From the IMG/VR virus record IMGVR_UViG_3300009104_000005: a stretch of 58,800 nt of DNA. One strand, given 5' to 3'. Below, in pieces: positions 2,272-21,833 of the stretch. The notes below the pieces were generated by a model. That model was given only the letters and a program-made list of their open reading frames with translations. It was not told the origin of the DNA and ran no database searches. The stretch comes from an uncultured virus (IMG/VR IMGVR_UViG_3300009104_000005). Its lineage: Duplodnaviria; Heunggongvirae; Uroviricota; Caudoviricetes. Position numbers and translations under genes: made by a program. Every line of letters begins with the position of its first letter. Position 1 is the first letter of the stretch.

Positions 2272-2555
2272 TCGACCCACTCTTCTCCATACTGTTGTGC
2301 ACCACACGATATACAACCAAGATTGCCTGACCCGATGGGTAGTTCAAGTATCGAATCCGACCCGCATTTCGGGCAATTCATAATTGGACCGCCCTCTGGC
2401 ATCAATGCTCGTAATGAGTTCAAATCTCGACCAGAGGCTGTTCCCTTTAACGGCCTCTTCCAACCACACATTCCACATTCACCATGCCTTAGTTGTGACT
2501 TGCATTTAGGGCATTCGTCACGCGAACGCTCTTTGAGAACACTCCACCAAGTCAA
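2268..2555 (-). CDS. Small double zinc-ribbon protein with N-terminal WWSVLK tag
   Basis: CPKC..CGMC and CPKC..CISC; ATGA overlaps on both sides. Confidence 0.7.
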   Translation of the reverse strand: MTWWSVLKERSRDECPKCKSQLRHGECGMCGWKRPLKGTASGRDLNSLRALMPEGGPIMNCPKCGSDSILELPIGSGNLGCISCGAQQYGEEWVE

Positions 2556-3949
2556 TCTATCAACCCCGCCATTAGGTCGTCCAAATCTATAATCCTCTCA
2601 CGGAATTCAGTAGTAGCCCAGACAGCCAGAGCCAAGGCTATGGCAAAGTCATCGTGCCGAGCGATACTCTCCAACTTACCTTCTCTGCTCATTCCAAACA
2701 TGATAAGTTCGTGCTCCAATTGGCTGATGAGGTCTCGAGACCTCTCATCACCCCATGGCAGACGCATCTGCTCGCGTTCAAAGCGCAGAACTAATCCCAT
2801 AAGAAGACTCTCCCTCCTTTGCTTGGTACTGATGAATGTCTTGATAGGAAGGTCAGTGTCCGCCCTCAATTCTGTAGCGAACACTCGCTGGAAATGGTTA
2901 GCCTCGAGTTCTATCACCTCAGGTCGGAATCTACTGTTGAGCCTCGTAATCTCAAAAATCTGAGTACGGAAATCCATACCCTTGCGTCTCACAACATGAA
3001 CCAATTCCAGTAACTCAGGGTTATCTGCTGGTCTTCGTAAAACTAGCATCACAGTGAAATCAGCCTGTCGGTCAGAGGATATGGCTGGGTCCCAACCGAT
3101 GAAATACTGGTCATCGCTGTCTGGGTCCTTCCTGTCTATGATATTGAGATACGGGTCCTTACAGGCATTGACAATAGTAGAAGGGAACAGGCTAGACATA
3201 TCGTCCATAGGTTCACAGAGATACTCACGAGTGAATGCTATGGCTGGCATATCCATTCTTCGAGCATCCAAAGCCTCTAATGACCAGCGCCATGGCCAAA
3301 GCGGCTCCCCCTTCTCATTGATGGCTGGATATGTCTCGACTAGGTAACCCTCTCTCCTCTCAAGTTCAGTATACAGGTCAGTAGGTGTGAATGGTGTGCC
3401 GACTATACACAACTGGGAAGTGTGGTGAACTGTAGGTACTAGTACTTCATAGAACCAAGAAGCCACTCTTTGCAATTCAGTCTCTGTAGTTCCCCACAAT
3501 ATGTCATCTAGTAGAACCAAGTCAGGGTGAGCACCACGAACACCACCCCCCACTGACTTGGCATTGATACGAGAGCCATTAGTGAACCCGAAGAATGTCT
3601 TTGACCAAGAGTCCTTGTCCTTCATCTTGGCTAACATGGGGCTGGAATCTATCAGGTCATTGAGATTCCTCATATGACGGATGGACTGGTCTAGACTGTG
3701 GCTGAATATCATAGTATCCAGTCTAGGGGTGAATATGACTTTCCACAACAAATAGCCTAGAAACAAAGTAGATTTACCGTGGTCACGGGCCGCTTTCACA
3801 CAGTATCTGTTGTGGGTGTTTAAGTTGTGAAACCAATCAGCATGGTGGTCAGCCAACTGCCAACCCAATATTTCCTCAAAGAAGAACTTGAAGTCTCTCT
3901 TGGACATCTCCCAATCAATGTCCTCAATAACATCTGTAACTTCAGCCAT
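2552..3949 (-). CDS. terL: Terminase large subunit
   Basis: Walker A AARDHGKST, Walker B LVLLDD, GTP coupling motif, RuvC-like nuclease IGWDPA, ELEAN and HDDFAIAL. Likely start at ATG 3949 after GAGAGTGAG. Confidence 0.95.
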   Translation of the reverse strand: MAEVTDVIEDIDWEMSKRDFKFFFEEILGWQLADHHADWFHNLNTHNRYCVKAARDHGKSTLFLGYLLWKVIFTPRLDTMIFSHSLDQSIRHMRNLNDLIDSSPMLAKMKDKDSWSKTFFGFTNGSRINAKSVGGGVRGAHPDLVLLDDILWGTTETELQRVASWFYEVLVPTVHHTSQLCIVGTPFTPTDLYTELERREGYLVETYPAINEKGEPLWPWRWSLEALDARRMDMPAIAFTREYLCEPMDDMSSLFPSTIVNACKDPYLNIIDRKDPDSDDQYFIGWDPAISSDRQADFTVMLVLRRPADNPELLELVHVVRRKGMDFRTQIFEITRLNSRFRPEVIELEANHFQRVFATELRADTDLPIKTFISTKQRRESLLMGLVLRFEREQMRLPWGDERSRDLISQLEHELIMFGMSREGKLESIARHDDFAIALALAVWATTEFRERIIDLDDLMAGLID

Positions 3950-3953
3950 TAAC

Positions 3954-5324
3954 TCACTCTCCAATCTTGAGTAGAGCCCAAGCACTTTCCAATGGTTGGA
4001 TTTGGTGTAGAGACGCTCTCACTTCATGTAAACCACCTAAGTCAGAAGTGTCACTTGAGCCTGCTGCTTGGGCGGTATCATCCTTCTTCTTACCACGCTT
4101 CTTACTACCCCTCTTTGGTTTGTCTGGAGAGTCTGGAATGAACTCAAAGTCATCTGGTATATTCTCTTCATCAAAACCAGGGTGACTGCGTAGCCAAGCA
4201 ACTACTTCCTTTTGACTCATTTTGTCTAAAGAGGGCCCCATGTACTTCTCGGCATAGTGAGCGTCTTTCCCTCTGAACATATGGTCAGTTAACCAGTCAC
4301 GATGAGTTATCGTCCCTGACTCTGGAGGTTCAACATCGAATGTCCTACCCTTCCAGTGGCCTTTTAGTTTATCATGATACTTACCAACACTCTTTAGATT
4401 TGATATCCCACTGAAATCTTGGTCCTCCACTTCTTTGGAATCTTGGCCATCTACGATTGCACCTTGATGGTCCCCACTTTCGTGTGTCCTCTCTCGCCCC
4501 CCGTCTGTATCAAGGCTGGAAGCACCACCACCATCACCACCATCACCACCATCACCATCAGTAGTATTAGCAGCAGCATCATCATCATCACTACCAGCAG
4601 CACCATCCACCAACGATGACACCTTTGTACGCCTCATCTCACTAGGATGCCTTAGACCAAGTTTGGTTCGAGCAACATCTTCTATCATACCAGGACTCAT
4701 AGTAGCATAGTAGTTTTTCAAATAATCCCATTCACTTGGGGTAATTTGACCATTATTATTCAACTTGTTCTGTAGGAAAGTCGCTCTCCCTGATGCAGTT
4801 GGTTTGCCTGTGAGAGGGGGAGGGCCTGTAGTGAATTTCTCCTTTAGACCTCTCCAATTCCAGTACCGAGGGTCAAGAGGTCTACGAACCTCTTCAAAGC
4901 CACCACTTAGGTGCTCCTGTCTTGTGACATTCTTCCTTTTCTGGTCAGCAGCAGTAGTGTCTTTCTTTCTACCAATAAAGAGTTCAGGTCGTCTCTGCTC
5001 CAATAACTGCCTAGCATCTATGTCTGCAACTCCAGGGACAATAGTCAATGTTGGGGCAGGGGGCTCAACACCAGTAAACTGGCGAGTTCTCTGACCTTCT
5101 AGGTACCTATCCCAAGCCTCCTTAGCAGCCCTCTGCTGTGCTTTGTAAGACCGAATCCTCTGCTTGGTACCTTCATCAAAGAACCTATCTCTGAATCTCT
5201 GTCTTGCTAAAGGAGGCTGGTCTACTATTGTCTGTGCTGAACCTACTCCACTATCTCCTGCTACCCCAGGTATGTATCCTTGGTAGTCCTTTAGCACCTT
5301 CCAGGCCTGTTCAAAATCTATCAT
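3954..5324 (-). CDS. Hypothetical virion-associated protein, WxxLK tag at both termini, Gly/Asp low-complexity linker
   Basis: N-terminus FEQAWKVLKD, C-terminus LESAWALLKIGE; coupled with neighbouring genes. Confidence 0.75.
   Translation of the reverse strand: MIDFEQAWKVLKDYQGYIPGVAGDSGVGSAQTIVDQPPLARQRFRDRFFDEGTKQRIRSYKAQQRAAKEAWDRYLEGQRTRQFTGVEPPAPTLTIVPGVADIDARQLLEQRRPELFIGRKKDTTAADQKRKNVTRQEHLSGGFEEVRRPLDPRYWNWRGLKEKFTTGPPPLTGKPTASGRATFLQNKLNNNGQITPSEWDYLKNYYATMSPGMIEDVARTKLGLRHPSEMRRTKVSSLVDGAAGSDDDDAAANTTDGDGGDGGDGGGASSLDTDGGRERTHESGDHQGAIVDGQDSKEVEDQDFSGISNLKSVGKYHDKLKGHWKGRTFDVEPPESGTITHRDWLTDHMFRGKDAHYAEKYMGPSLDKMSQKEVVAWLRSHPGFDEENIPDDFEFIPDSPDKPKRGSKKRGKKKDDTAQAAGSSDTSDLGGLHEVRASLHQIQPLESAWALLKIGE
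4524..4605. repeat. Coding trinucleotide/9-mer low-complexity repeat (GDGGDGGDGG, AAGSDDDDAAA)
   Basis: accaccatc / gca / tca runs on the + strand. Confidence 0.7.
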
Positions 5325-8196: not shown

Positions 8197-8632
8197 GACT
8201 ACCCTCTATTATACACTCTGCAGTTAACTTGACTCTACTACTGATATTGAAATAAAATTCTCGCAACTCTCTAGGGCCCATGAAAGCAGCAGCGAACGAA
8301 TTCATCAACTCGTCAAATTCATCTATCAACTCACCCAATTTAATCCTAGCATCAAAAGTAGAAGGGGAGTCATCTTCAGAAACATCCTTGAAACACTCTT
8401 GTAATCGCTTTATGATGTCTGCATGGGTTCGATAACTCTCGTAAATGCCTGGATTCATACTCCCTATTGCATCATACCATCGGTCAATAACATCATCCAG
8501 AAGAGTTAGGAAAAGAGGTAATTCTCTTCGGTGTACAGGCCTAATCTCACGAAGAAGTGATGACATTCTCACATCGCCACACATGAGAGTGTTTACTGGC
8601 ACTTGAGAGTTGCCACCTAATTCAATGCTCAT
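8186..8632 (-). CDS. Hypothetical helical protein
   Basis: 148-aa ORF overlapping both neighbours. Confidence 0.7.
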   Translation of the reverse strand: MSIELGGNSQVPVNTLMCGDVRMSSLLREIRPVHRRELPLFLTLLDDVIDRWYDAIGSMNPGIYESYRTHADIIKRLQECFKDVSEDDSPSTFDARIKLGELIDEFDELMNSFAAAFMGPRELREFYFNISSRVKLTAECIIEGSHGW

Positions 8633-9311
8633 CTATTTCCACCACCTCGTCCTCTTGGAGTAACTTATTACGAATCCTCTTCCAAACCTCAGGTGACTCT
8701 TTGGCGAGTTCTACCTTGAGTATATTCACAGTGTCAGCCTGAATAGTCTGTTGGACATCTCCTATGGTCTTCTCTTGGAGTCTCATCATTAATCCCAAAG
8801 TCTCCCTAACCTCTCTATGTAAAGTAGTGATGTTCTTCACATAGGCAGGGTCATTACGGTCAGCATCATCCAAGAAGACCCCCAACTCACCATTCAACCT
8901 CTCAACATTTCCTCTAAGGTTCTCCATCTCTTCTCCTGTTCGGATTGCTATAAGAGGGGCCGCTGTCTTCTGAACTAGTGGTTTAAGATGGTGTCGAATG
9001 TGATGATATACTGTGGATTCGCTACAACCAACTAACTCGGCTATAGCATCACTGGTCATACCACCCTGGAAATAAGCACCCTCAAACTCATGTCTTTCTG
9101 GGTGGGTACATACTACACAATCACTGTTCGAGCCCATGTGATACTCTCCCATATGATTCCGGAAATGGCGGTCTGAAGTGCCCTCACGCCAGTTCTTATC
9201 CTTATCCAATTGCTTGGGGATTACACTACCTTGGAGCAGTCCTTCTTCTAGCAAATCCCTATCAGTATCTTGACAAAGCCGGCAAGAGGACCTAGTAACG
9301 CGTTCGCCCAT
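8622..9311 (-). CDS. Putative terminase small subunit: tandem Zn/HTH domains plus coiled coil
   Basis: Duplicated CxxC...HxxxH units (CRLC..RHFRNH; CVVCTHPER..SESTVYHHIRHH), an HTH and a C-terminal coiled coil. First gene of the run leading to terL and portal. Confidence 0.5.
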   Translation of the reverse strand: MGERVTRSSCRLCQDTDRDLLEEGLLQGSVIPKQLDKDKNWREGTSDRHFRNHMGEYHMGSNSDCVVCTHPERHEFEGAYFQGGMTSDAIAELVGCSESTVYHHIRHHLKPLVQKTAAPLIAIRTGEEMENLRGNVERLNGELGVFLDDADRNDPAYVKNITTLHREVRETLGLMMRLQEKTIGDVQQTIQADTVNILKVELAKESPEVWKRIRNKLLQEDEVVEIDEH

Positions 9312-9364: not shown

Positions 9365-9682
9365 GTGCGAGGTCTAAAGAGGGCTCCCAAGACAGCGACA
9401 CATAAGGCTGCAACCGAGTCGCAGAAGCCCTCTTGGGCCTCCACAATTTCAGACTTGAGCAAGGCTGCTAAGGACATCATAAACGCTAACCATGTGACCA
9501 GTGAAGAACAGAACAGGAGACTGTTGATTTGTGCCCCTTGTGAACACAAGATAGGGACTCGTTGTAATCTCTGTCGTTGCTTCCTCAATTACAAGACTAA
9601 ACTCACGAATAGTGAGTGCCCAATAGGGAAGTGGTCAGCCTCTGTCGGAGAGCCTGCGGTAGACGGCTCCAGTCATCAGTAG
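9365..9682 (+). CDS. DUF6171-like Cys-rich small protein
   Basis: RRLLICAPCEH..RCNLCRCFLNYKTKL..ECPIGKW pattern. Confidence 0.7.
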   Translation: MRGLKRAPKTATHKAATESQKPSWASTISDLSKAAKDIINANHVTSEEQNRRLLICAPCEHKIGTRCNLCRCFLNYKTKLTNSECPIGKWSASVGEPAVDGSSHQ

Positions 9683-9832
9683 ACTGGTAAATAGAATCGC
9701 CATCGAATAAGTGAGTTCGGTCTGCTTCATATCGTTAGCATTGAAGGCTATCATCAGGAATGCACCTAGAGTGATACTGATAACTTGCACCATTATCATA
9801 TCAATCAAGGACGATTTCTTCACATTGGCCAT
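9635..9832 (-). CDS. Small two-TM membrane protein (holin-like size)
   Basis: Two hydrophobic stretches and a basic C-terminus. Start chosen at MANVKK with TTTATT about 35 nt upstream. Confidence 0.6.
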   Translation of the reverse strand: MANVKKSSLIDMIMVQVISITLGAFLMIAFNANDMKQTELTYSMAILFTSLLMTGAVYRRLSDRG

Positions 9833-9905
9833 ATCATGTATCCCATAAAGGACACTGTCCAATGGAATAAACTGCATGGGGTTCATACTAGAGGCTTTCA
9901 TTTAA

Positions 9906-10538
9906 TCACACCACCGGAGGGACTGGAGTTTGTTGTACTGGTAATCCTAGTGCTCCTCTGAACACATTACCAACAGTGCTACCGACATTCTGCATGAAAC
10001 CAGGGTTAGCCATGGCAGCACCAAGTGCATCACTCATCAGATTCTGTTGAACCATATTGAGTATAGCCTGTTGTTGCTGGTGAGCCGCTGTTATGGAAGA
10101 TTGAGCAGCCGTGGCGAGAGTATTGTTCTCCATAGTCACACTATCAGGAGTAGGTAGGAGTGTAGCATCTACGAATTCAAACTTCAACTTACCATCGTCA
10201 GTCTCCACAAGAGTGGTATTCTTCAGAGTCTCAACAGTAGCGAGAGCACTGATTTTGTACATCAGTGAAACAAGCACCTGTAGATTAGGGCCAGCAAACC
10301 ATCTGTCTACTGGTACACTAGTCTGTATAAGAGCAGCCATCACTTCCAAATCGCTCGGTGGAGCCAAAGGTGGTGGCTGTTGATATTGGTATCCCATCCC
10401 CCCCATTATCCCTGCGCCCATTGCACTATAGGGGTTAGCGTAAGGGTCAGTCGTCCCATAAGCGGGCATTGACTGTTGATTATTGGGCAATCCTAGTGGG
10501 GCAGGAGTCGCTGATTGACTAGATTGCCACCAACTCAT
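9906..10538 (-). CDS. Q/P/G-rich hypothetical protein, last gene of GTPase module
   Basis: 210-aa ORF, ATGA-coupled to the upstream gene. Confidence 0.75.
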   Translation of the reverse strand: MSWWQSSQSATPAPLGLPNNQQSMPAYGTTDPYANPYSAMGAGIMGGMGYQYQQPPPLAPPSDLEVMAALIQTSVPVDRWFAGPNLQVLVSLMYKISALATVETLKNTTLVETDDGKLKFEFVDATLLPTPDSVTMENNTLATAAQSSITAAHQQQQAILNMVQQNLMSDALGAAMANPGFMQNVGSTVGNVFRGALGLPVQQTPVPPVV

Positions 10539-11554
10539 TCGACCACCCCTTGCATAGCCTCAGCAGTGTCCATCATCTCCTGCGTAGGGGGTGGCACAGT
10601 TGAAGTTTCCGTCTGAGGTGCTGTCTGTGCCAAGAGTTCTCCAAGTCCCATTGTAGGTGTACCTGAGGAAGCAGAAACACTGTTCATTATGGCCTCGTTT
10701 ATGAGCCTAGAGTTGACACCAGTCTCGAACTGTCTCATATCGAACACAATCACTGTGAGGTCATTGTTCCCATCAACATTCTGTAGTCTCACCACAGGGA
10801 TATTATCCTCCTTCATCATATTGAAGAATGGTTGATATCTCTGCAACGCAAGAGGGGTATTGTCCTTCCCTATCATCCCACCAGCCATACCAGCCACTGG
10901 GACAGTGACCATTGAGACACCCTTATTCAGTCTAGATTTGAGAGTGCTTGTAGTCCCATCTTCCTCATCCTGCTCTGCAGTTTCCCACTTCAGGAGCAAA
11001 TGATAGAGATGGAGATGCTCGGGACAGTATGTACCTCTGATAATTCTACCACTAGTCACACCCTCACGAGCCTGAAACCCTCTAGACTCCCCAGTTACTG
11101 GGTCTGTGAAATAGAGGTCCCACAGGGATTTCCCTGTCTCCTCATCCTTAATCATATCATAGACATTACCAGCAGCCCTCATCAGATTATCTACATCACA
11201 ACCATCAATGCAACAATGGGTAGCATCTCCGGCATACTGGTATTTTCCACCGAACCACCATCTACGCGGAGCAAATAAACTTCGCTTGGTGGGGGTGAGT
11301 AGTCTGTAAGCCTGACGAATATCCGACCTTCGGGCCTTCTTTAGGTTACCATGGTTGGATGGGTAGAAATTGACCTTAGGTATTTCGATATGAGTTTGCA
11401 TCGCTGCTTCCTGCATATAGGTCTGGGCTTGTGCCATCTCTCTCAGTTGCGCTAATGGCACCTGTGAGTTACCGGCTATCTGTAGCATTTGCTGACTATT
11501 ATAAGACCCCAGTGGAGGGACTTCTGCGGGCTGATTAAAGGGGTTCATCACCAT
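10535..11554 (-). CDS. Hypothetical protein with probable Zn site (HCCIDGC...YCPEH)
   Basis: 339-aa ORF starting 4 nt after the GTPase stop. Confidence 0.75.
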   Translation of the reverse strand: MVMNPFNQPAEVPPLGSYNSQQMLQIAGNSQVPLAQLREMAQAQTYMQEAAMQTHIEIPKVNFYPSNHGNLKKARRSDIRQAYRLLTPTKRSLFAPRRWWFGGKYQYAGDATHCCIDGCDVDNLMRAAGNVYDMIKDEETGKSLWDLYFTDPVTGESRGFQAREGVTSGRIIRGTYCPEHLHLYHLLLKWETAEQDEEDGTTSTLKSRLNKGVSMVTVPVAGMAGGMIGKDNTPLALQRYQPFFNMMKEDNIPVVRLQNVDGNNDLTVIVFDMRQFETGVNSRLINEAIMNSVSASSGTPTMGLGELLAQTAPQTETSTVPPPTQEMMDTAEAMQGVVE

Positions 11555-11558
11555 AGTA

Positions 11559-12275
11559 TCACCATGTTAGCATGTCGACCAAGGTCTGCTCTACATTCCA
11601 CCCTATCTTGGTGGCCATCATGCTCACCCGACAGGGTATTCCTGCTTTCTGCAGTTTCACCATTGCTGGTCGATACGGATTGAATATAGGATGCTCCCTT
11701 AGCCTTTGAGATTGCCAAAGAATGTTCGCTTGCTGGTCCCACCATGTGTCTGCCTTGTTTGCTACAACCCATATTTGTTTGGGGGCGTATTTCTGCCCTT
11801 TCCATCGACTTTTCAAACTGCGATATTTCCATCGCCTCTCGATTAAGGCGTCTACGAGATACTCCAGCCCTCCCACTGCGTCGATGGTATCTGAGCCGTT
11901 CCCACTCTGAGCCCTGTCGTCTATCATGAAGATGACCATTTCGACTTGCCTCTCGACCATGTCGTCTATCCAAAGATTCCAGAACCTCTGTTGACCCCCT
12001 AGGTCCGCAGAGTGCACAACACGCTTCTCTCCTTTGTATCGTATTCTCTTGCGAGTGGGATTGGGTAGAACATGTCCTGACCCTAGAAGCCTTTCTGAAT
12101 GACTGGTTCTCTCCTCGACATCTGCCATCTCTCCTGGAGTCGTCATGAATCTGTCCAAGGTGGTCTTCCCTACCATAGTTGGGCCGTATATCCCCAGCCT
12201 GCGTGGTTTCAGGTAATTGTAGAGGTCGTTCCCGAATACTACTGCTGCCATTAGGACAGAGCCACCAACCGCCAT
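11559..12275 (-). CDS. Small GTPase, Ras superfamily (Arf/Arl-like)
   Basis: G1 GPTMVGKTT, G3 DLGGQQRFWNLW, G4 NKAD, G5-like SMMAT; hydrophobic/amphipathic N-terminal helix before RLGIYG. Confidence 0.9.
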   Translation of the reverse strand: MAVGGSVLMAAVVFGNDLYNYLKPRRLGIYGPTMVGKTTLDRFMTTPGEMADVEERTSHSERLLGSGHVLPNPTRKRIRYKGEKRVVHSADLGGQQRFWNLWIDDMVERQVEMVIFMIDDRAQSGNGSDTIDAVGGLEYLVDALIERRWKYRSLKSRWKGQKYAPKQIWVVANKADTWWDQQANILWQSQRLREHPIFNPYRPAMVKLQKAGIPCRVSMMATKIGWNVEQTLVDMLTW

Positions 12276-12281
12276 GCACGC

Positions 12282-12527
12282 TTACACCCAACCGCCGACT
12301 GTCTCCTGAGCCCATGTGATAAAGGAGTCCACTGTATTTTCCCATAGACTCATATCGGCATTGCTCTCTACAGCCGAAGTTATGAATACTGCACCTACAG
12401 TAAAGATGACTGTCCTGAACCAACCCCAACTGTACTCGTAGTAATTATCGAGCGTATTCTGCCAATGAAGGGCTTTGAGAGTTGCTTCAGTAGCATCATC
12501 ACTAGGAGTCTTGAAAAGCCATCCCAT
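12282..12527 (-). CDS. Small membrane protein
   Basis: Central hydrophobic segment WGWFRTVIFTVGAVFITSAV; upstream GGTGTAG RBS-like sequence. Confidence 0.7.
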   Translation of the reverse strand: MGWLFKTPSDDATEATLKALHWQNTLDNYYEYSWGWFRTVIFTVGAVFITSAVESNADMSLWENTVDSFITWAQETVGGWV

Positions 12528-12531
12528 TCAA

Positions 12532-13092
12532 CTACACCTTTTTGGAAGCAAACTGACCACCAGGACCTCTTGGTTGTTTGTCGGACGGACCCAAGTCAAT
12601 AGAACCTTTCTCCTCTGCGGCATGCTGAGGAGGGCCAGGTGGTTGAGGGATTACTAACATATCACCCAGTTGAGTGATATCAGCACCAGTAGACTCCAGT
12701 TCTTGCTGGTGCTCCATCATCTGCATCTGTCGAACGAACTGTGCTTCTTGCATTCTCATCTCTAGTTCCATCTGGCGATTAGCCATTTCCTGTTGCATTT
12801 GTTGCATTCTACGAGTTCTCTCTCTGTCCATGCGTGCGAAGCCCGCTTTATGGTCCATCGAATCTTGCATCAATAATTTGTACAAAACGAAGGACATCCC
12901 TTGTAGGGTGAAAGCGGCCATCGCATATGTGTAAGCGTTAGTCTGGGTATCACTGGCTTTGAGCCAGAGACCAGAATCGAACACAGCGATAGTTGCCCCC
13001 ACGAGTAGGGATACAAAGGTGATTAGACCCAAGACCCTCAATTCATCTGCAGTTGTCTCACTAGGTTGTAGGGGTAGATTTGGCGATGCCAT
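12532..13092 (-). CDS. Two-TM membrane protein with Q/M-rich coiled coil and P-rich tail
   Basis: Two hydrophobic helices followed by RMQQMQQEMANRQMELEMRMQE; GGTGAGG RBS. Confidence 0.8.
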   Translation of the reverse strand: MASPNLPLQPSETTADELRVLGLITFVSLLVGATIAVFDSGLWLKASDTQTNAYTYAMAAFTLQGMSFVLYKLLMQDSMDHKAGFARMDRERTRRMQQMQQEMANRQMELEMRMQEAQFVRQMQMMEHQQELESTGADITQLGDMLVIPQPPGPPQHAAEEKGSIDLGPSDKQPRGPGGQFASKKV

Positions 13093-13126
13093 GATTCTTC
13101 CTCACCCGTGCGATAGGACAGGACCT

Positions 13127-13132
13127 CATATA
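13127..13132 (-). promoter_or_regulatory. Putative TATA box of GTPase operon
   Basis: TTATAT on the minus strand about 35-40 nt upstream of ATG 13092, in the only sizeable intergenic gap there. Confidence 0.4.
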
Positions 13133-13166
13133 ATCTCCGGTTAAGAGGTTGACCGGGTTATCGTTT

Positions 13167-16100
13167 TTATTGGACAATCTTGATATTCTTAAGAATCTTG
13201 TCCCAAGCAAGTGACATTGGCTCATCATCATCTGAACGGGTCCACTGCATAGGGCCTTCTGGTCCCTCTGTAGGATATTTTGGAGGCTCTGGTAATGTAT
13301 CACCTGTCAACCTGCCAGCCTCTTCCGTAGATAGAGTGCCCCTTTCCACAGGAGGAGGTAGTGGGGGTACCTTAATATTAGTACCTTCCAAAGCACTTTC
13401 TAGTCGTGAGTGATATGCTTCAGCATGGTCATGCCGACCTAGACCATGTACCCTATTTCGCTCCTCAATTAGAGCGGCTGGCGTGAAGACTGCATCACGC
13501 TCTACCCTATCAGTTGTCTCTAGCCCCTCCCTAACCGTACCATCCTCTTCCGGAGGTCTCGGTTTCGCACCATATCTGAAATGCCCCTCAGTCCTCTTAT
13601 CTAGAGCATCCATCCTATCGGTGAAAATTGAACCAGCAGTTCCCATAACCCCACCATTAACATGGTATATGTTATGGTCAGTACCGAAATTATTTTCTAG
13701 CATCTCGCTAGCCATCTGTTGGCTAGTCTTACCACCTCTTGACAAGAAAGCGCCATGTAGTAAAGTCATAGGGACATCACGCACTATCCCTGGTTTGGAA
13801 TGGTCAGCAATTTCTAGCCTATAGATTTTAGTCCCAGTCTGCATTTTATTCAAGAGTGCTATAGGATGCCCCTGTTCAGTGAATTGCTCTGTTAAACCAA
13901 GAAGTAATCGAGCATCATTCAACTTACCCTGCTCATAATCACTTAGTTTCTTCTTATCCTCATACTTGGTGATATGGCCCTTAGCCTGACCAATCTTCCT
14001 CTTGAGCAAAGCACTCTTGGTCCAACCTGGGAGCCCCCCTATGTTTTCAGCAGCGCTAGGTTTTCCCAAATCACTGAATGAAGTAGCCCCTGTTATTCTG
14101 AATAAATCACTAGTACCCACACCAGAAGAGGAGCCTGCTAGGAGCGAACTGAGTCTACGAACCTTCTTCTCGGCAGAACGATAGCCGGTGAAATATGCCT
14201 TGTTGAATTTAGGATGGCTCCAGCCGTTACCAGAGAAAAATCCAGAGTTGAGAGTAGGTATTACAGTATTGGGGTCCAGTAAAGCCTTCAACTCATGCTC
14301 TGCTTTCGTTGCAGCCTTGTCATTAACGACATCATGAACCCCTCGTAACTCCTTCCCTGTCAGTCTTCTATTGACATCTGGCATGAATAATGTATCAGAT
14401 ATCTGTGACCCCCCTGCTGCTAATCTCAATGCGTCAATAACCTGTTGCATCTCATCACCTTTAACAGGACTGAAGGAAGCCTCATCGCCCGCAAAGCCTG
14501 AGGTAATCTGATAATTTGGCCTATGATATTGGACTATCGCATACTTGTCCCACTCATTACTAGTGACACCACCGCTTATATGCTCACCCAAGGCTACATG
14601 CCCCATACCTGGGATTTCTGCACAATGTTGACAAGAATGTTTGTTATTCTGTTTATCTCTGAACCAACCTCTACCACCACACATACCACAGGATACTAGT
14701 GCGGGGTCTCTCAACCCTCCCTCATACGCTCCTGGTGTAAGAGTAGCCATGTATTGAGCCCTACTCTTTAGACTATCTCTGTTATCGAGTGCCGGAGCAA
14801 TCCAATTTATACCATCAGTGTTAAGGTGGCCTCCAAAACCCTTCCCAGGATAAATGTAGTCTTGATTGGGCTCACTGAAACTATCATGACAATGTGGGCA
14901 TTCGCCGTTGTCAACATCATCCCGACTGAGTTTCATAAAGCACCTAGGACATACTGATACAGGTTTTACTCCACTAAGAAAAAGTGTAGTGTCTCCGAAT
15001 TTGACTCTATTTCTCTCTTGAGGATTAGTATGGTCAAAGCCATGCTCTATGTAATTGAAAGTTGAAATATCATTTGGTATACTTCCTGAATGGAAAACAT
15101 CGAACGGTGAATGAGGTATTTCATTACCATCATCATCTACTAAATCGGGGTGAGTGAAATAGGGTATGTGCATGTCCAATTTCTCAAACCCGTTTAGCCA
15201 TTCAGAAGTAGCATCCTGAAGCGCCTCGAAATGCTCGTCTTCCACTTTCTCCTTCTTCTTATCAAACTCTTCTCTAGTGATACCCCCTTGTTTGTACTCA
15301 CTTTCAAGCCGTTTAATCTGAGCCCATTTTGACCCACCAACATCTTCCAAATCAGAATCCCGGAAGTGGTCCATCCACATCTGAAAACCATCTGCCACAT
15401 CTGACTTGAATTTTTCAGGGTCTAGATGTAGTACTGTACCATAGGCTTTGCTACTTACCATACTGAACCCTAATTCAATCATATTCCGAATAGCCTCATG
15501 TCCTCCATAGTATTGCTTACTAGGTATTTCAGTGTTCATCGCCTCTTGCATCCTAGGGCTAGCCATGAGACTCTTATGGTCAGGGGCTGGATTGTTACTA
15601 TGACGAAGTTCTAACATCTTCTTACCTTGACCAACAGTACTCGCATGCTCATACAATTCAGTAGGGCCGCAGTAACTCTCAGCCTCTGGGATAATCTGTT
15701 CGCAACCAGGATACTGACACTGTCCCATCTTAGGTTTCTCTCCACCTACCCACTCGGTAGGCTCAGGCTTTTTCCTTTCTCCCAATAATGGGGGCTCAGG
15801 TTTGAAAGTCATTGACTCTTTCAAATCCTCGAGTTTTCTGTCTTGAGCCTCAGAACCAGCAGGGAGTCCCCAACCCTCCTGTGGTGGAGGCCCAATATTA
15901 CCCGCACCCCAGAACTCATCTGCCGGCACCTTCTCTAGTTGCCTGTTGAAAGAGGTCCCAGTACCCATACCTCCAGTATGACTGTACCAAGGGTCACGGA
16001 TAGTATAAATCACTCCAGTAGGCTCACCTTTGTCGTCTTTCTCTTCATACCAAAGCACCCCTGGTATTTGCTTAGTTGCTCCTGGTAAGTGAGTTCTAGG

Positions 16101-19100
16101 AGGAATGTAACCACTTTCGTCGAGTACATCATCTGGGAGTTTGTTAATCACAGCCTTACTGGGGTCGACCACTAATTCTGTAGGCCCTGAAGGGTCCATT
16201 GGATACTTGATGGTTTTACCTAGTAGTTCTCTACCTTGTTGGGAAAGCCAATTCAAGGCTGTCCATAACTTCTCTCGTACATGTTCGGGAATGGGAGTGC
16301 CGGTATTACCATCACATCCAGGGCAGACATGAGTGCCATTACAACCTGGGCATTGCATTGATACTCCTTCTCTCGTGAACCAAGTGGGGTCCTCTGGGTC
16401 AAAATTAGGATGGTCCTCCCACTCAGAATGAGTATGTGTACGAGCATGCTCTTTGAAGAACTGGATTACTCTAGGGTCACCATATTCAATCTCACCACTT
16501 CTCATGATAGGTCTACCTTCAGCATCTAATGCCAACCAAGAACGCTCTCCATCTGTGGTTCTGAATTGAATGAATGCTGGGGACTTTTTGATAAAATCTT
16601 CAGGGCTTATATGGCCCATGCCATCACAAGCAGTGCAAGAGGTAGCATAACCCCAGGGGTTCAACCCCGTTACTCGGTCCCTGTGAGGTAAGATGGCTTT
16701 GAGAGCCTTCGCGGACCCCTCAGGGTCTGAAGAGCGTCTCATAAGCATATCACGAACTCTGAACCAAGCATCCTCATCTGCTGCATTTACACCTGATGAC
16801 TTAGGTTCACCCTTCATAGGAGCAGGTCCACGATAGTCCAATTCCCCATACCCTTCTTTCAAATCTTCAAGTGTTAAAGGGAATTCATCAGTCCCAAGGG
16901 GCTCACCTCTAAGAGCACACCAAATATAGTCAGCGATAGGTTTCATCTCCTCCAATGTCCTACCTTTGGTAGCGAATAAACCATTACTTTTCTTATAAAA
17001 ATCATGGTCAGGGTCACTGAGCCCTTCATCATGAGCAATCCAGGCTTTACCTATCCAAGCAGGTATGTTTGGGTTGTTGAGAAAGAGTGTCATATCTGGG
17101 AAATGATTAGTAGTAGGCATGAAACCATGGTGGTCTTGAGAGACATAACCATATCTCAAAGCCTCTTCACAATCTCGATAGTGACCTCTTAGTTCGCCAA
17201 ACACTCTCTCTAAGGTCTGTGGTTTCAAGAAGGGGGCCTTAGAATCAGTGGTATTGAATATCGACTCTGGCCAACCCTTCTCGATTTGCTCTTCTCTAGG
17301 CGCTAAGTAATAATGGGACCACTCTTTCTCTGCTACCAACAAGGGGGAGAGAAGATGCAAGTTGTTTTTGAGTAATCTCTTGTGAGCATCATTTACTTTT
17401 TCACCCTTATCCATATCTAGAGTCTTTCGAGCCCAATCTTGCATACCCTTCTCATCTTCACCCCCCGTCAACCATAGTGGGTTACCATGAGCATGTACGA
17501 GATAGTCAGGCGTGAGAATATGTATAGCATAGAGTTCCTTGAGCAACTCATCATGTTCAGGGTCTAGAATCCCGTCATCGTGAATCCTATCCAGATGCCG
17601 TTCACCATACGAATAGTTCTCCCTATCAGTCTCAGTAGTACCATGGAGAGCCTGCCTGTCACTGTTTGTATTGTAGTACCTACTATGGAACTTATGAGTA
17701 AATTGCTCATCAGGAGTGGGTTTACCACCCCGTCTTCTCATAGCCGCAAACTTACCAAAGTCTAAATCTCCTCTATGTTGTTTGTAGAGGGGACTATGGG
17801 TAAACTCCTGTCTCTTATTTATCCTCAACTTCTCGTACTCTTCACCAATATCCTTCCCCTGCTCCCTCCACTCTTCCCTTTGCTCAGGAGTAACAAGACC
17901 TATTTCCTCGTGAGTGTCTTGCAACTCGTCTAGAAGTGGACCTCTAGCCCAACTCGCTTCTTGTAATGCATACATATCCTTATCCATAATCGCTCTATGT
18001 ATCATTGACTCGAATATCTTGGTACCGTCCTCCGATTGGGGGTCATTGGGACAACCTTCTCCTGATGACATCATATTGGGACCCTGGTGATAACCATCCT
18101 TATCACCGAGATTGGGTATGTCTAGAGAATTTGAACCTGGCATAGGAGGTCTCCCCATCATAGCCTCAACCTTACAGAAGGGGCATTCTGTGTTACTGGG
18201 TAGAGCATCCTCATCATCCTGCATCGCACTTGCAATGGTATCGAATTGCTCTATGGCTTTCTCACCACGCTTATACTTCTCCAAAGCCTGCTGATGGGTT
18301 TCCCCATCAAAAACCGACTGGAATTCTTCCCCTTCCCTCTCTATCAAGTCCTTCATAGCCATATCTAATTGCTGGATTTGCTGCTTCAACTCTGGTGAAG
18401 GGTCCTCAGTGTAAGCATCACTTTTCATTTTGATATCCTCATGCAACTCCTTGTACTTGTCCAGAACAGCCAATGTGAGTCTATTGATATCCATCGGATT
18501 ATGGTATATCCTGGACTTAGGGCCTACACCAGCAACTATCCTCCTATTGTGACCATCACCACAACAAGCACAGGATGGCTTCATATCTCTCATGAGAGAA
18601 TTATTCGTAACAGCAGAGATGACCTTATTGCCACCATACCTTTGGACACCAGTACTTTCATGACCATACACACCTCCACCCAGGTCTACTTTCTTCCGGC
18701 AGGCTGGACATGGGTGTCCCTCCAAATAATTACCAGTGCCTGATTCTCTAGCCTGTCGCGACCCATGACATACTCCACATGGTGCAATCGCAGGTCTAGA
18801 ATCAAATCTCCCAGGATGCCTAACCGTCTCCAAATGATTAGATATTCTCTGATTTATCGCCTCAGGATGATTTGGTAGGTGTGGGTCATAAGAGAGTATC
18901 TCACATAGTTTATTGAACCAAGAAGAATGGACAGCATCTCTCAAGAAGAAACCTGGCACACCAAGATTATTATCTATCAACTTGAAGTCCTCAACTAAGG
19001 ACTTAGCAATCTCATCACGAATGTGAGTAATAGGAGCCCCTTTATTCTCGAGCATAACTTTTCTTCTCAAATCCATAAGATTGCGATTGGTAAGAACTCC

Positions 19101-21833
19101 TCCTCTTGTGATACCATCTGAACCTAACTCTTCTGTATGCAACCCGTTATGATGCAGTAAGAAGTGGACACCATCAGGTAATATACCACGATTACTGAAA
19201 TTAGCAATCTCTCTATCCCTTTGTTCTTTCCTTTGAGCAAAGCGCAAGGTAGAATGAGCACCTTCCAACTCTTTGGCCATAGCCTCCAAAGCATCAGTTG
19301 CTGTGAACCCCTCGAAGTCTATCTTAGCCAAGATTTTGTGGAGAAATCCTGATGGGTTAACAAACTCTTTATTACCATCACAAATGAAACATTCCTCATT
19401 AAGATACGGGTCTATACCAGTAGGCTTCCCAGTCTCTTCGTCAATACACTCAGTGCAAGGTTCGTAGAAATCATTATCTCGGGCCAATTGTATGATATTT
19501 CTATCATGCACATTTTTGAGTACATCATACTCTTTCTTCAAGTCCTCTACAATCTTATGCTTCTGACTATCACTGAGTGTGGTCTCACTTATCCCAGGGA
19601 CTTCCCCTGAGGCATCACATCTATTACAAGGGATAGGTCTCTTAGCCCTACTATTCTTCGTATATTCCTTACTACCCTTGCATTTAGGGCATTCAACCAT
19701 TGAAACATCAACTGGTCTCTCTCCAGTGATTGGGTCCTTACCATAAGTCCTTTGAGTTCCTAGAAGCATATGCCGCGCCATAGTACCAGCATCACTACTC
19801 AGAATAACTGAGGGTGTATTCTCAATATCGTGTTTGTTGTACAAAGCCTTCTTCAGCATCAAAAATCTTGAGCCCTCTTTAGTTTTCAGAAAAGCCAACT
19901 CTCTAATCGCGAACTCCAGTAGAGTTGGTGATATCCCACTCTCGTGGGCTCTCTCGTCAAAACGATGATGGACTTTTTCTCTCTCCTTGGACAATTCACT
20001 CTCAGCATCTTTCAACATTCGCTGTTGAGCCTGTGGTGTAGCCCTAGTAGTGAGGTGTTCAACCATAGCGTGATTATCTAGGAGTATCTCCATATCCTTC
20101 TCAGTGAGATGTAGAGGATGGCTTTCATGTGCATACGGCCCATCCCCAATGGAATCATCAACTCGACCCTGTAACTCCTTCTCAAATTCTCGATAAGCCC
20201 TTTCCCAGTCCTCATCGTCATATCGCATGTCGTAAGTGTTGAATGGTATTCCGGAACTAACTCTATCCCTCTCCACCCCAGCCATCTCATTTGGGTCTAA
20301 TGGTGAGTCCCCTCCTGCCTCAAAGTAATCTTCATCTTCCAGTAGGTCACGGCCCCCTCTATCTTTGACATGCTGTGGTTTCTCAGGCTCTCCTTCATAG
20401 GTACCCTCACCTCCAGTAGATGCTTGAGCCCCTGCACCAGACCCTTCCAAAGAGTCGAACTCATCAGGAGCGTCTCCTCCCCCAGCAGCATGTTGAGGAC
20501 GAGGGTCGTGATTCAGATATTTGAACAAATCTCGGGAACCCCAATCACCTATGATTGAATTAGTCTCAATAGCATGCTTCTGACCACGAGCAGCCTCCTT
20601 GGCTTTATCTCCCTCAAAGTCGGATATTGCATGAAAAATATCATCCCTCTCTTCTGCTGGGAGCCTCCAAGTAGCAAATAGAACTTTGAGCAGAGTCTCT
20701 GGGCCAGAACCGAAATCAATACGACAACCTAGTATAATCCTCCTAACTTCCCAAGGCTGGTCTTCCCACCAATTAACTATTCGATGGTATCTACTATCCA
20801 GTTTCCCTTTCTTCATCTTAGGATTCTGGGGGGCATCTCTGAGAATCTTACCTAGACTCATTATGGCTAGATTAGTCCTTTCTTGGTCCACTAAGTTCCC
20901 ATAACTATTGATATCATGCCTAGAACCCATCTTCTCTTCACGGCTTTGCCTCAGAGAACCCTTAGACTGTAAGATGCTAGGACAGTCACAAGACGAGGCC
21001 CCTTTCCCTAGTTCGCAATCATCAATATGCTCCTGATGTCCTTGCATAGCCAATAACACATCAGCACAAGCATTATCTTTATAATACCCTTTCAGAACCT
21101 GAAGCCTGTTAGAGTTATGGATTGTATCTTCTACCTTCGCTCTCTCACTTTCGTCTTTGCCCCTCATCATTGCTCTTATAGCGTTCTTAGTCCTAGGGGT
21201 TTGGTTCATTCTCTCTATTCTTGAATCAAGAGTTTTGAGTATAGCGGACTTACTTTCATCATGCTCATCAGGGTGTTGCTTAGCCAATTCCAAACATCTC
21301 AGGTTCCAAAGAGCGTGAACCTTCTTATCCTTATGTGCCATGAGTGCCAACGCATTCTTACTAGTCTCATACCTATTTGGGAATACATAGTTCTTGTAGT
21401 GATTGTCACCCATCTTGCTGTGTTCATGTAAGATTGAGTTCCAAGCCTTGGGGCTAAAGACTGAGGAACCATCTTCCCCTACTGCACTCACGATGGGCTC
21501 ATCTTGGTTAATTCTCCCCCTACCAGACGAACTCCCACATTGTTCACAATGTCTCCCCTCTTCACCCTCTTTCTCACATGTGGGGCACTCAATACCTGTC
21601 TTGGAAGCCAGTTCCCACTTAGGAGTATACTTCTGGAGTATCTCATACAATCTAATGAATTTGTGGTCATCAGTCCTATACTTCGACAAGATATGTCTAG
21701 CATCCCTAGCATCACAATTACTGAGTCTTCTGATAAGGTCCTTCTCATCCTTGTCTGGTGGTTCACCACGAGCCGCTTTGAGAAGCAACTCTTTGAGAAT
21801 TTGCCAAGAAGACTCTACAGGGCTAACTAGCAC
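13167..21833 (-). CDS. Giant (~2,890 aa) protein with many CxxC / DnaJ-type CxxCxGxG Zn-finger repeats; likely internal virion protein
   Basis: Uninterrupted ORF with CPKCKG, CNRCDASG, CGVCHG, CTACDGMG, CPGCNG, CPGCDG and CGMCGGRG. WxxLK-type tags at both ends. GTG 21833 preferred from promoter spacing (track gives TTG 21845). Confidence 0.85.
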   Translation of the reverse strand: MLVSPVESSWQILKELLLKAARGEPPDKDEKDLIRRLSNCDARDARHILSKYRTDDHKFIRLYEILQKYTPKWELASKTGIECPTCEKEGEEGRHCEQCGSSSGRGRINQDEPIVSAVGEDGSSVFSPKAWNSILHEHSKMGDNHYKNYVFPNRYETSKNALALMAHKDKKVHALWNLRCLELAKQHPDEHDESKSAILKTLDSRIERMNQTPRTKNAIRAMMRGKDESERAKVEDTIHNSNRLQVLKGYYKDNACADVLLAMQGHQEHIDDCELGKGASSCDCPSILQSKGSLRQSREEKMGSRHDINSYGNLVDQERTNLAIMSLGKILRDAPQNPKMKKGKLDSRYHRIVNWWEDQPWEVRRIILGCRIDFGSGPETLLKVLFATWRLPAEERDDIFHAISDFEGDKAKEAARGQKHAIETNSIIGDWGSRDLFKYLNHDPRPQHAAGGGDAPDEFDSLEGSGAGAQASTGGEGTYEGEPEKPQHVKDRGGRDLLEDEDYFEAGGDSPLDPNEMAGVERDRVSSGIPFNTYDMRYDDEDWERAYREFEKELQGRVDDSIGDGPYAHESHPLHLTEKDMEILLDNHAMVEHLTTRATPQAQQRMLKDAESELSKEREKVHHRFDERAHESGISPTLLEFAIRELAFLKTKEGSRFLMLKKALYNKHDIENTPSVILSSDAGTMARHMLLGTQRTYGKDPITGERPVDVSMVECPKCKGSKEYTKNSRAKRPIPCNRCDASGEVPGISETTLSDSQKHKIVEDLKKEYDVLKNVHDRNIIQLARDNDFYEPCTECIDEETGKPTGIDPYLNEECFICDGNKEFVNPSGFLHKILAKIDFEGFTATDALEAMAKELEGAHSTLRFAQRKEQRDREIANFSNRGILPDGVHFLLHHNGLHTEELGSDGITRGGVLTNRNLMDLRRKVMLENKGAPITHIRDEIAKSLVEDFKLIDNNLGVPGFFLRDAVHSSWFNKLCEILSYDPHLPNHPEAINQRISNHLETVRHPGRFDSRPAIAPCGVCHGSRQARESGTGNYLEGHPCPACRKKVDLGGGVYGHESTGVQRYGGNKVISAVTNNSLMRDMKPSCACCGDGHNRRIVAGVGPKSRIYHNPMDINRLTLAVLDKYKELHEDIKMKSDAYTEDPSPELKQQIQQLDMAMKDLIEREGEEFQSVFDGETHQQALEKYKRGEKAIEQFDTIASAMQDDEDALPSNTECPFCKVEAMMGRPPMPGSNSLDIPNLGDKDGYHQGPNMMSSGEGCPNDPQSEDGTKIFESMIHRAIMDKDMYALQEASWARGPLLDELQDTHEEIGLVTPEQREEWREQGKDIGEEYEKLRINKRQEFTHSPLYKQHRGDLDFGKFAAMRRRGGKPTPDEQFTHKFHSRYYNTNSDRQALHGTTETDRENYSYGERHLDRIHDDGILDPEHDELLKELYAIHILTPDYLVHAHGNPLWLTGGEDEKGMQDWARKTLDMDKGEKVNDAHKRLLKNNLHLLSPLLVAEKEWSHYYLAPREEQIEKGWPESIFNTTDSKAPFLKPQTLERVFGELRGHYRDCEEALRYGYVSQDHHGFMPTTNHFPDMTLFLNNPNIPAWIGKAWIAHDEGLSDPDHDFYKKSNGLFATKGRTLEEMKPIADYIWCALRGEPLGTDEFPLTLEDLKEGYGELDYRGPAPMKGEPKSSGVNAADEDAWFRVRDMLMRRSSDPEGSAKALKAILPHRDRVTGLNPWGYATSCTACDGMGHISPEDFIKKSPAFIQFRTTDGERSWLALDAEGRPIMRSGEIEYGDPRVIQFFKEHARTHTHSEWEDHPNFDPEDPTWFTREGVSMQCPGCNGTHVCPGCDGNTGTPIPEHVREKLWTALNWLSQQGRELLGKTIKYPMDPSGPTELVVDPSKAVINKLPDDVLDESGYIPPRTHLPGATKQIPGVLWYEEKDDKGEPTGVIYTIRDPWYSHTGGMGTGTSFNRQLEKVPADEFWGAGNIGPPPQEGWGLPAGSEAQDRKLEDLKESMTFKPEPPLLGERKKPEPTEWVGGEKPKMGQCQYPGCEQIIPEAESYCGPTELYEHASTVGQGKKMLELRHSNNPAPDHKSLMASPRMQEAMNTEIPSKQYYGGHEAIRNMIELGFSMVSSKAYGTVLHLDPEKFKSDVADGFQMWMDHFRDSDLEDVGGSKWAQIKRLESEYKQGGITREEFDKKKEKVEDEHFEALQDATSEWLNGFEKLDMHIPYFTHPDLVDDDGNEIPHSPFDVFHSGSIPNDISTFNYIEHGFDHTNPQERNRVKFGDTTLFLSGVKPVSVCPRCFMKLSRDDVDNGECPHCHDSFSEPNQDYIYPGKGFGGHLNTDGINWIAPALDNRDSLKSRAQYMATLTPGAYEGGLRDPALVSCGMCGGRGWFRDKQNNKHSCQHCAEIPGMGHVALGEHISGGVTSNEWDKYAIVQYHRPNYQITSGFAGDEASFSPVKGDEMQQVIDALRLAAGGSQISDTLFMPDVNRRLTGKELRGVHDVVNDKAATKAEHELKALLDPNTVIPTLNSGFFSGNGWSHPKFNKAYFTGYRSAEKKVRRLSSLLAGSSSGVGTSDLFRITGATSFSDLGKPSAAENIGGLPGWTKSALLKRKIGQAKGHITKYEDKKKLSDYEQGKLNDARLLLGLTEQFTEQGHPIALLNKMQTGTKIYRLEIADHSKPGIVRDVPMTLLHGAFLSRGGKTSQQMASEMLENNFGTDHNIYHVNGGVMGTAGSIFTDRMDALDKRTEGHFRYGAKPRPPEEDGTVREGLETTDRVERDAVFTPAALIEERNRVHGLGRHDHAEAYHSRLESALEGTNIKVPPLPPPVERGTLSTEEAGRLTGDTLPEPPKYPTEGPEGPMQWTRSDDDEPMSLAWDKILKNIKIVQ

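Follow-up and report, generated by a model that had tools for sequence, protein, structure and literature searches.

This study concerns a compact cluster of small genes, termed here the cassette, in a 58,800-nucleotide (nt) stretch of DNA from an uncultured tailed virus (IMG/VR record IMGVR_UViG_3300009104_000005; Duplodnaviria, Heunggongvirae, Uroviricota, Caudoviricetes), which is referred to at its full length as the window. The third gene of the cassette, g3, encodes a protein whose motifs, sequence profiles and predicted structure mark it as a real small GTPase of the Ras superfamily, accompanied by the small membrane proteins g1 and g2, the putative soluble partners g4 and g5 and, in the virus group of the window, a further small membrane protein, g6. 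Judged from these sequences, a GTPase-controlled membrane cassette with virion release as its output is the best explanation that we can offer, held tentatively and with slightly less than even confidence. Gene content and position suggest that the cassette probably acts at a membrane; from the same two lines of evidence, egress as its output is a doubtful proposition.

In the proposed mechanism, g3 would serve as a nucleotide switch: in one of its nucleotide states, the hydrophobic N-terminal helix would bring the protein to the cytoplasmic membrane of the host, where the protein would work with the co-encoded small membrane proteins g1 and g2, together with g6 in the window's group, while g4 and g5 would contribute as soluble partners, in the role of regulator or effector. 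The output would be late remodelling or rupture of the host membrane, leading to virion release. This output was placed first because the exit machinery of archaeal tailed viruses is unknown, their egress players being described in PMC10791045 as completely uncharacterised, and because g1, g2 and g6 look holin-like.

The small GTPase encoded by g3

The g3 family comprises 466 proteins at E ≤ 1e-3 among 1014 candidates, nearly all of them 223–254 amino acids (aa) long, and no precomputed Pfam domain is present in any of the 466. Residue conservation was read from alignments of 17 and 47 members, in which the G1, G3 and G4 motifs are built around invariant residues (Table 1) and T38, T39, D176, R56, T57, H59, W99 and W102 reach at least 90% conservation. 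The three motifs are found together in 163 of 164 loci, the exception being truncated at its 5′ end, and in 157 of a set of 163 family proteins of at least 200 aa. Across 262 distinct motif-bearing sequences, GKT or GKS is found in every one and NKxD in 260. A first-pass annotation of the window, made by a model from the letters alone, had described g3 as a small GTPase with intact G1, G3 and G4 motifs, a description that these counts bear out.

An AlphaFold2 (AF2) model of g3, built with 47 sequences (predicted local distance difference test, pLDDT, 86.1; predicted template modelling score, pTM, 0.83), contains the six strands and five helices of a Ras-like G domain, preceded by an N-terminal helix at residues 3–22. 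It also carries inserts, namely a switch I region of about 30 residues (45–73, at lower confidence) and extra helices at 127–162 and 181–210. When the model was searched with Foldseek, at least 500 small GTPases were matched at E ≤ 1e-3.

The residue that follows DxxG, which we take to be the catalytic Gln position of Ras and Arf, is variable in the family (Q in 133, E in 95, D in 21, H in 11, A in 1 and S in 1 of the 262 distinct sequences). The equivalent residue is His in Sar1 and SRbeta and Gln in Arf and Arl. The lack of conservation suggests that hydrolysis is slow, partner-assisted or carried out through another residue, and the family may use a different or partner-supplied catalytic mechanism; R56, T57 and H59 of switch I are, as a matter of speculation, candidate substitutes for the catalytic Gln. 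An alternative is that the G domain has degenerated, with nucleotide bound either constitutively or never, and that g3 is a structural subunit with no switching role. This would account for a Gln retained in barely half of the sequences, for the large inserts and for the sub-threshold scores in all family databases. Such a degeneration is nevertheless very unlikely, since GxxxxGK[ST], DxxG and NKxD are kept down to about 30% identity, which is the pattern of a specific guanine nucleotide binder, and R56, T57 and H59 belong to the conserved set.

Relationship to the Arf family

When a g3 sequence profile was compared with all Protein Data Bank (PDB) sequences, the best real match was 8OUN (E 2.4e-6 with 17 sequences, 4.9e-6 with 47), which is GerdArfR1, an Asgard Arf-related protein (ArfR) according to bioRxiv 10.1101/2024.02.28.582541. 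The match spans the N-terminal helix with the P-loop, and switch II. It is followed by Arl8A/Arl8B (1.6e-4 to 9e-3), Rab33B (about 2e-3), Gs-alpha (0.014) and KRas (0.02 or above); matches of the profile to RecA were rejected as repeated P-loop noise, in which no stretch passes alone. The best structural matches of the g3 model are also Arf-family members, Arl1 among them, by a modest margin. Because profile and structure, two partly independent lines, agree, the Arf/Sar/SRbeta branch appears closest, with small margins, and Arf-family proteins (GerdArfR1, Arl8, Arl1) would be the nearest known relatives of g3.

The resemblance has an anatomical side. Members of the Arf family (Arl1, Arl2, Arl8, Sar1, SRbeta, GerdArfR1 in 8OUN/8OUM and HodArfR1 in 8OUK) likewise place a G domain after an N-terminal helix, and switch II of GerdArfR1 aligns with the DxGGQxxFxNLW pattern of g3 (residues 91–102, DLGGQQRFWNLW). 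In contrast to the Arf family, g3 is about 55 residues longer, the extra length being found in switch I, past beta4 and between G4 and G5; its helix is more apolar than amphipathic, and the Gln is often replaced by E, D or H. For g3 itself, family databases give no more than sub-threshold values: Pfam Arf (PF00025) reaches E 0.034 and 14.1 bits against a cut-off of 22.3, SRPRB E 0.2, and NCBIfam yields the generic small_GTP domain; PHROGs has no match. Because the Pfam threshold is missed and the catalytic residue is not conserved, g3 is filed outside the Arf family, as a new and very divergent family resembling Arf-type GTPases. Of the earlier suggestion that g3 looks like Arf, Arl and Sar1 proteins, the likeness in switch II and the nearest position by profile and structure were upheld, whereas the Pfam score and the variable Gln do not fit it.

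Nucleotide-dependent membrane binding through an N-terminal amphipathic helix is given as an Arf hallmark in bioRxiv 10.1101/2024.02.28.582541, and the N-terminus of g3 is relevant to the proposed mechanism in this respect. Its predicted helix falls in the aligned range of the corresponding helices in Arl2 and GerdArfR1, and consists of about 13 small or apolar, Gly/Ala-rich residues (GGSALVGG-like) followed by an aromatic amphipathic stretch (KELYNYWKPRR-like). Hydropathy was calculated on the Kyte–Doolittle (KD) scale in a 19-aa window, for which the usual membrane-span threshold is 1.6. The maximum is 1.37 in g3 and lies between 0.3 and 1.4 in 46 of 47 aligned sequences, the remaining one having an N-terminal extension and a value of 2.2. 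A classical SRbeta-like membrane anchor was rejected, as the N-terminal hydropathy is too low; judged by its sequence, this N-terminus is more in keeping with a peripheral membrane helix than with an anchor of the SRbeta type and would not be a textbook amphipathic helix.

Putative partner proteins of the GTPase

All 27 orthologues of g1 have at least one strong hydrophobic segment, and 13 of 27 have at least two at KD ≥ 1.3. The first-pass annotation had called g1 a protein with two transmembrane (TM) segments, of which the first is strong in the window and the second weak. Its call of g2 as a small TM protein stands, with one moderate segment at KD ≥ 1.3 in 26 of 27 orthologues.

The g4 protein has a core of no known fold and a very basic helix. 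Five Cys/His residues of g4 (C114, C177, H180, H182 and H185) are likely to form a metal site, judged by their invariance in 27 sequences; the earlier description of a Zn-site protein is supported to that extent, metal binding itself being deduced from the residues. The g5 protein had been labelled Q/P-rich, in agreement with a Q+P+G+M+N fraction of 0.53 in its first 55 residues and 0.50 in its last 50, and it gave no usable Atlas match. A roadblock/MglB partner, which the annotation had reported as not recognisable, was likewise not found in g1, g2, g4, g5 and g6 at Pfam E ≤ 1. A complex prediction of g3 with residues 55–285 of g4 gave ipSAE 0.01 in both runs; controls were not run, and the value says nothing either way.

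Virus and genome setting

The source genome is that of an archaeal-type tailed virus, magrovirus-like by its genome features. The strand of the cassette also carries the large terminase gene (TerL), the portal gene and an open reading frame (ORF) with an HNH part, and this minus-strand arm, with three recognisable packaging genes, spans about 25.3 kb down to base 1. The plus-strand arm encodes NUDIX, DUF932, an SNF2 helicase, an RFC-like AAA ATPase and a family B polymerase (PolB). The first-pass assignment to an archaeal tailed virus is consistent with this division, with TerL and portal on the cassette strand and PolB, RFC-like AAA and SNF2 on the other arm. Magroviruses are described as combining a head–tail structural module with an archaeal-type replication module in genomes of about 100 kb, and as belonging to the most abundant viruses of archaea in the surface ocean (PMC5434244); the window is called magrovirus-like because its arm layout matches these modules. 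The cassette sits on the structural and presumably late arm. Relatives come from viral contigs of up to 118 kb and from marine metagenomes; 20 marine DNA sequencing runs contain the sequence, and no RNA run is among the matches listed.

Base composition follows the same division. GC skew and AT skew both switch sign at about 24–26 kb (GC skew at about 25–26 kb), where the two divergently transcribed arms meet, and cumulative GC skew has its minimum at about 24–26 kb.

Conservation of the cassette across virus groups

Of 155 pattern matches in IMG/VR, 154 contain a gene related to g3; the counts for the window's group refer to the best 80 of these loci. By tblastn, the genes were recovered with unchanged order and strand in 78 (g1), 79 (g2), 80 (g3), 80 (g4), 79 (g5), 79 (g6) and 80 (g7, a gene downstream of the cassette) of the 80 loci, with g3 identity ranging from 95% down to 57%. 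Three loci (L049, L069 and L051) carry an insert of 0.6–1 kb between g3 and g4. The inserts at 6727–7394 of L049 and 6715–7768 of L069 (plus strand) contain two or three small ORFs, one or two of them with an N-terminal F-D/E-x-AW-x-LLK motif, and one insert ORF of 74–79 aa appears by eye to have an AbrB/MazE-type DNA-binding domain.

A second, distant group encodes a 223-aa GTPase that is about 32% identical to g3 and related to it by profile–profile comparison (probability 99.9%, E 3e-32). It was represented by the best 80 of 140 viral loci, of which 14 were sampled for layout. All 14 show the same succession of a 2-TM protein of 135–165 aa, a one-TM protein of about 74 aa, the GTPase, proteins of about 225 and 235 aa, and a large protein. 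The analogue of g4, about 225 aa long, has YC[PE][EK]H, here GTYCEKH, at the place of the CPEHLHLYH motif of g4 in 10 of the 14 loci. Profile comparison recovered the g4 homologue at 91.4% (E 9e-7) and the g5 homologue at 86.6% (E 4.5e-6), against at most 20% for 12 non-cognate control pairs. For g1 and g2, the same comparison found no homology between the two main groups, and only position and architecture agree, the g1 positional analogue having two TM segments at KD ≥ 1.3 in all 14 sampled loci. No g6 counterpart was seen after g5 in the distant group. A third group has g1, g3 and g4 in the same order in 4 of 4 loci.

The large gene that follows the g5 analogue in the distant group encodes 450–1326 aa and is variable (8138–9571 in L092, 8092–12069 in L123), with no family match and no CxxC motif; a conserved protein of about 358 aa (phrog_17057) comes after it. 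Large proteins beside the cassette in the distant groups have no BLAST similarity to any ORF of the window.

The genes g1–g5 travel as one block within the structural arm, and g6 and g7 are specific to the virus group of the window. Synteny in related viruses, on which the first-pass proposal had been made to depend, was found for g1–g5 in 78–80 of 80 loci, and the distant group repeats the layout. The surroundings of the block differ between groups. The distant-group cassette shares its strand with the major capsid gene (phrog_24667, E 1e-25) and starts some 1.2 kb past it, with three small ORFs in between. In a complete 118-kb relative (G001; CheckV 100%), the cassette lies at about 15–17 kb and the capsid gene at 39.1–40.3 kb on the same strand, a distance of 23 kb. 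In the third-group locus L081, a chaperonin gene (3250–4782, plus strand; phrog_5725, E 6e-42) is directly upstream of the cassette.

These surroundings bear on the main rival explanation, in which the cassette is a morphogenesis factor, a membrane-attached or chaperone-like platform for head or tail assembly, and no exit device. A membrane site for assembly has a parallel in principle in phage T4, whose prohead assembly is initiated at the membrane. The place of the distant-group cassette, between the capsid gene with its three small ORFs and the large protein, is a usual site of head-completion or tail genes; a chaperonin gene adjoins the third-group cassette, the 2892-aa protein upstream in the window carries DnaJ-type CxxCxGxG motifs, and every cassette gene is on the structural arm. 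We nonetheless regard a morphogenesis role as rather unlikely, as no cassette gene is similar to head, tail or scaffold families in PHROGs or Pfam, small membrane proteins are unexpected in a tailed virion, and the cassette shifts as a block relative to the capsid genes, which argues for a self-contained function.

Comparison with known systems and origin of the GTPase

As far as anatomy tells, the cassette resembles a membrane switch of the Arf/Sar/ArvA type. Among archaeal Arf-like proteins, ArfR is described as almost exclusive to Asgard archaea (bioRxiv 10.1101/2024.02.28.582541); in contrast to ArfR, g3 is encoded by viruses of non-Asgard archaea. In Euryarchaeota, ArvA is reported as an Arf-like GTPase with an N-terminal amphipathic helix, encoded in an operon with a Zn-ribbon protein, and in Haloferax its deletion abolishes and its overexpression raises vesicle formation (PMC10927574). 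Compared by description, the ArvA–ArvB–ArvC system of Haloferax volcanii (OapA/B/C) shares with the cassette an Arf-like GTPase, a hydrophobic N-terminal helix and an operon-encoded Zn-binding protein, putative in the case of g4. The small membrane proteins of the cassette are missing from the arv operon as described, and the cassette is viral. Pfam families of ArvB (DUF2073) and ArvC (DUF2072, Zn ribbon) gave no match in g1, g2 or g4–g6 at E ≤ 1, and PF09845 gave none in the 118-kb relative, while control matches were obtained in Haloferax, Methanocaldococcus and Methanosarcina.

The control of euryarchaeal vesicle production by ArvA, together with the conservation of the small membrane proteins, could also be read as a sign of non-lytic host take-over at the membrane, for example superinfection exclusion, control of vesicles or protein targeting, or an anchor for replication or packaging. 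We consider such a role improbable: the cassette is on the structural arm and the replication genes are on the other, the searches made gave no cellular relative to suggest a host-mimicking function, and PADLOC shows no defence or anti-defence family.

Small GTPases are also encoded by giant viruses of eukaryotes, and the top 50 BFVD neighbours of the g3 model are all of this kind. Giant-virus small GTPases were acquired from eukaryotic hosts. By their BFVD names they are recognisable as Rab, Ras or Ran (for example mimivirus Rab, 5XC5), whereas g3 is without a recognisable cellular source. A search of one genome each of 185,579 prokaryotic species gave 44 pattern matches, none of them a relative, although the use of two peptide patterns only makes this weak evidence. 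In 1.84 billion representative proteins, phmmer found 75 matches at E ≤ 1e-3 (52 at 1e-10, 11 at 1e-30), all of at most 277 aa, and the full-length matches that were aligned carry the g3 family motifs; a recent capture of a host GTPase was rejected on this ground. Grouping of g3 with a host housekeeping operon, named by the first-pass annotation as a result that would speak against it, found no support, with no cellular relative in either the two-pattern scan or the representative proteins. There was no tblastn match to g3 in the GenBank phage collection and no P0162-type GTPase in the viral contigs, and no fused or longer g3 form (418–2000 aa) was found, the last being weak evidence.

The membrane proteins invite comparison with holin lysis cassettes. 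Like holins, g1, g2 and g6 are small, with one or two membrane segments and charged tails, and lie on the late arm near packaging and structural genes; holin architecture fits g2 and g6, and g1 in part, with no match to a holin or lysin family. Phage holin cassettes differ in that no holin, endolysin or spanin family is matched in the cassette, and we know of no phage lysis cassette that contains a small GTPase. No description of a virus-encoded small GTPase of archaeal or bacterial viruses was found in the papers searched, the supplementary gene tables for magroviruses, which might list one, lying beyond that search. One family member bears the automatic JGI label 'GTPase SAR1 family protein'; its GTPase nature is not wholly unseen, yet no discussion in print was found.

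Evidence against membrane-directed virion release

Several of the results weigh against an Arf-like switch that acts on the membrane to release virions. In Foldseek's own ranking, the top places go to Rab1, Rap1, Sec4 and RhoA (E about 2e-8, TM-score to query 0.41–0.52), and the profile of the distant subgroup alone has no significant PDB match (KRas, E 0.53; GerdArfR1, E 0.62). Pfam Arf appears in 8 of 17 scanned members, always sub-threshold (best E 0.0048), beside MMR_HSR1 in 5 and Roc in 4 of the 17. In 129 of 262 sequences, another residue stands in place of the switch II Gln, a departure from both the Gln of Arf and the His of Sar1/SRbeta. The N-terminal segment of g3 stays under 1.6, and its first half is apolar and not amphipathic. 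Holin, lysin and other lysis families are absent from all cassette genes in Pfam and PHROGs. The cassette adjoins a capsid gene in the distant group or a chaperonin gene in the third, positions that fit morphogenesis equally. The outputs proposed in the first-pass annotation, namely egress or lysis, vesicle formation or a replication compartment, would all follow from where the genes lie and what they encode.

A GTPase-controlled membrane cassette for virion release remains our preferred explanation, at the tentative level given at the outset. The boldest form of this idea is that a self-contained, virus-specific Arf-like machine, made up of the switch, membrane receptors for it, and a regulator and an effector with new folds, vesiculates or ruptures the host membrane and constitutes the missing exit system, its GTPase being a deep, non-Asgard branch of Arf/SRbeta; this we consider decidedly unlikely.

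Cassette layout, upstream signals and flanking genes

The coordinates of the five minus-strand ORFs g1–g5 agree with the compact operon of the first-pass annotation, with gaps of 4, 6 and 4 nt followed by a 4-nt ATGA overlap. In the annotation, the module consisted of five genes; g1–g5 are packed as claimed, and a sixth small membrane ORF, g6, was left out. It starts 4 nt past g5 and belongs to the same tight cluster in the window's virus group, in 79 of 80 loci.

An upstream TATA-like box had been noted as the operon's own, and further evidence favours it (Table 1). The identical ATTATAT box stands at −42 in loci L001 and L002, and orthologous upstream regions have A/T-rich boxes (CTTTAT, GCTTATG, GTATATG) at a similar position. 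A strict TATA-like pattern at −55 to −30 occurs in 27 of 65 distinct orthologue upstream regions, compared with 76 of 2000 random windows. Most orthologues have words of the GAGG/GGAG type ahead of the chosen start, as does g1; these Shine–Dalgarno-like words are weak evidence, because the start was chosen partly by the same criterion.

Upstream, a giant ORF of 2892 aa (13167–21845, minus strand) lies 74 nt from g1. Its CxxC motifs number 17, and two have the DnaJ-type form CxxCxGxG; it belongs to no Pfam family, and its one PHROG match, phrog_127, is weak. In the closest relatives, the ORF at this place exceeds 1600 aa and runs past the edge of the locus, and in distant relatives it has 329–1056 aa and few or no CxxC motifs. 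At its downstream end, the cluster meets a convergent Cys-rich gene (9365–9682, plus strand; phrog_13558, E 3e-12). About 48 nt at the 3′ end of this gene are shared with the end of g6, and in 73 of 80 related loci it likewise lies opposite in strand to the cassette. Beyond it lies g7 (8622–9311, minus strand), encoding a 229-aa helix-turn-helix (HTH) protein that matches phrog_664 'DNA binding protein' (E 7e-8) and several sub-threshold Pfam HTH families. The g7 gene follows the cassette in all 80 loci of the window's group and was not seen in the distant group.

Table 1. Positions in the window of the cassette genes, their motifs and upstream signals, and the packaging genes on the same arm
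Feature	Position	Strand	Basis
Portal	2-808	-	phrog_18178, E 6e-32
HNH endonuclease-like part in a 502-aa ORF, between large terminase and portal	808-2316	-	phrog_5046, E 2e-8
Large terminase	2552-3985	-	Pfam Terminase_6N/6C; phrog_38, E 1e-57
g6, 88 aa, two hydrophobic segments, window's virus group only	9635-9901	-	two segments in 26/26
g5, 210 aa, G/Q/M/P-rich ends, invariant PPS[DE], helical core, Gly-rich C-terminus	9906-10538	-	alignment and composition
g4, 339 aa, confident core about 65-205, Q-rich disordered ends	10535-11554	-	predicted Zn site
g4 motif CPEHLHLYH (C177, H180, H182, H185)	11000-11026	-	invariant columns in 27 sequences
g4 C114, joining the motif as likely metal site	11213-11215	-	invariant in 27 sequences
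g3, 238 aa, predicted divergent small GTPase of the Ras superfamily, nearest to the Arf family	11559-12275	-	motifs, profiles, model
g3 G4 motif NKAD, residues 173-176	11748-11759	-	N173, K174 invariant; D176 at least 90%
g3 G3/switch II start DLGGQ, residues 91-95	11991-12005	-	D91, G94 invariant
g3 G1/P-loop GPTMVGKT, residues 31-38	12162-12185	-	G31, G36, K37 invariant; T38 at least 90%
g3 N-terminal hydrophobic helix, residues 3-22	12210-12269	-	AF2 model, pLDDT 63-80
g2, 81 aa, one moderately hydrophobic segment	12282-12527	-	KD 35-53 (1.51)
g1, 186 aa, membrane protein, then Q/M/E/R-rich helical tail	12532-13092	-	KD 20-38 (2.48), 57-75 (1.34)
Shine-Dalgarno-like GGTGAGG	13100-13106	-	8-14 nt before g1 ATG
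TATA-like box ATTATAT	13128-13134	-	36-42 nt before g1 ATG

Significance for archaeal viruses and Arf-type switches

The presence of the cassette in hundreds of viral contigs, together with a recognisable switch, makes it a concrete and testable candidate for a membrane process under the control of a virus. Arf-like GTPases from outside eukaryotes and Asgard archaea are few, and the g3 family extends them with one carried by viruses. If it were indeed a deep, virus-borne branch of Arf/SRbeta, it would bear on the origin of Arf-type membrane switches.

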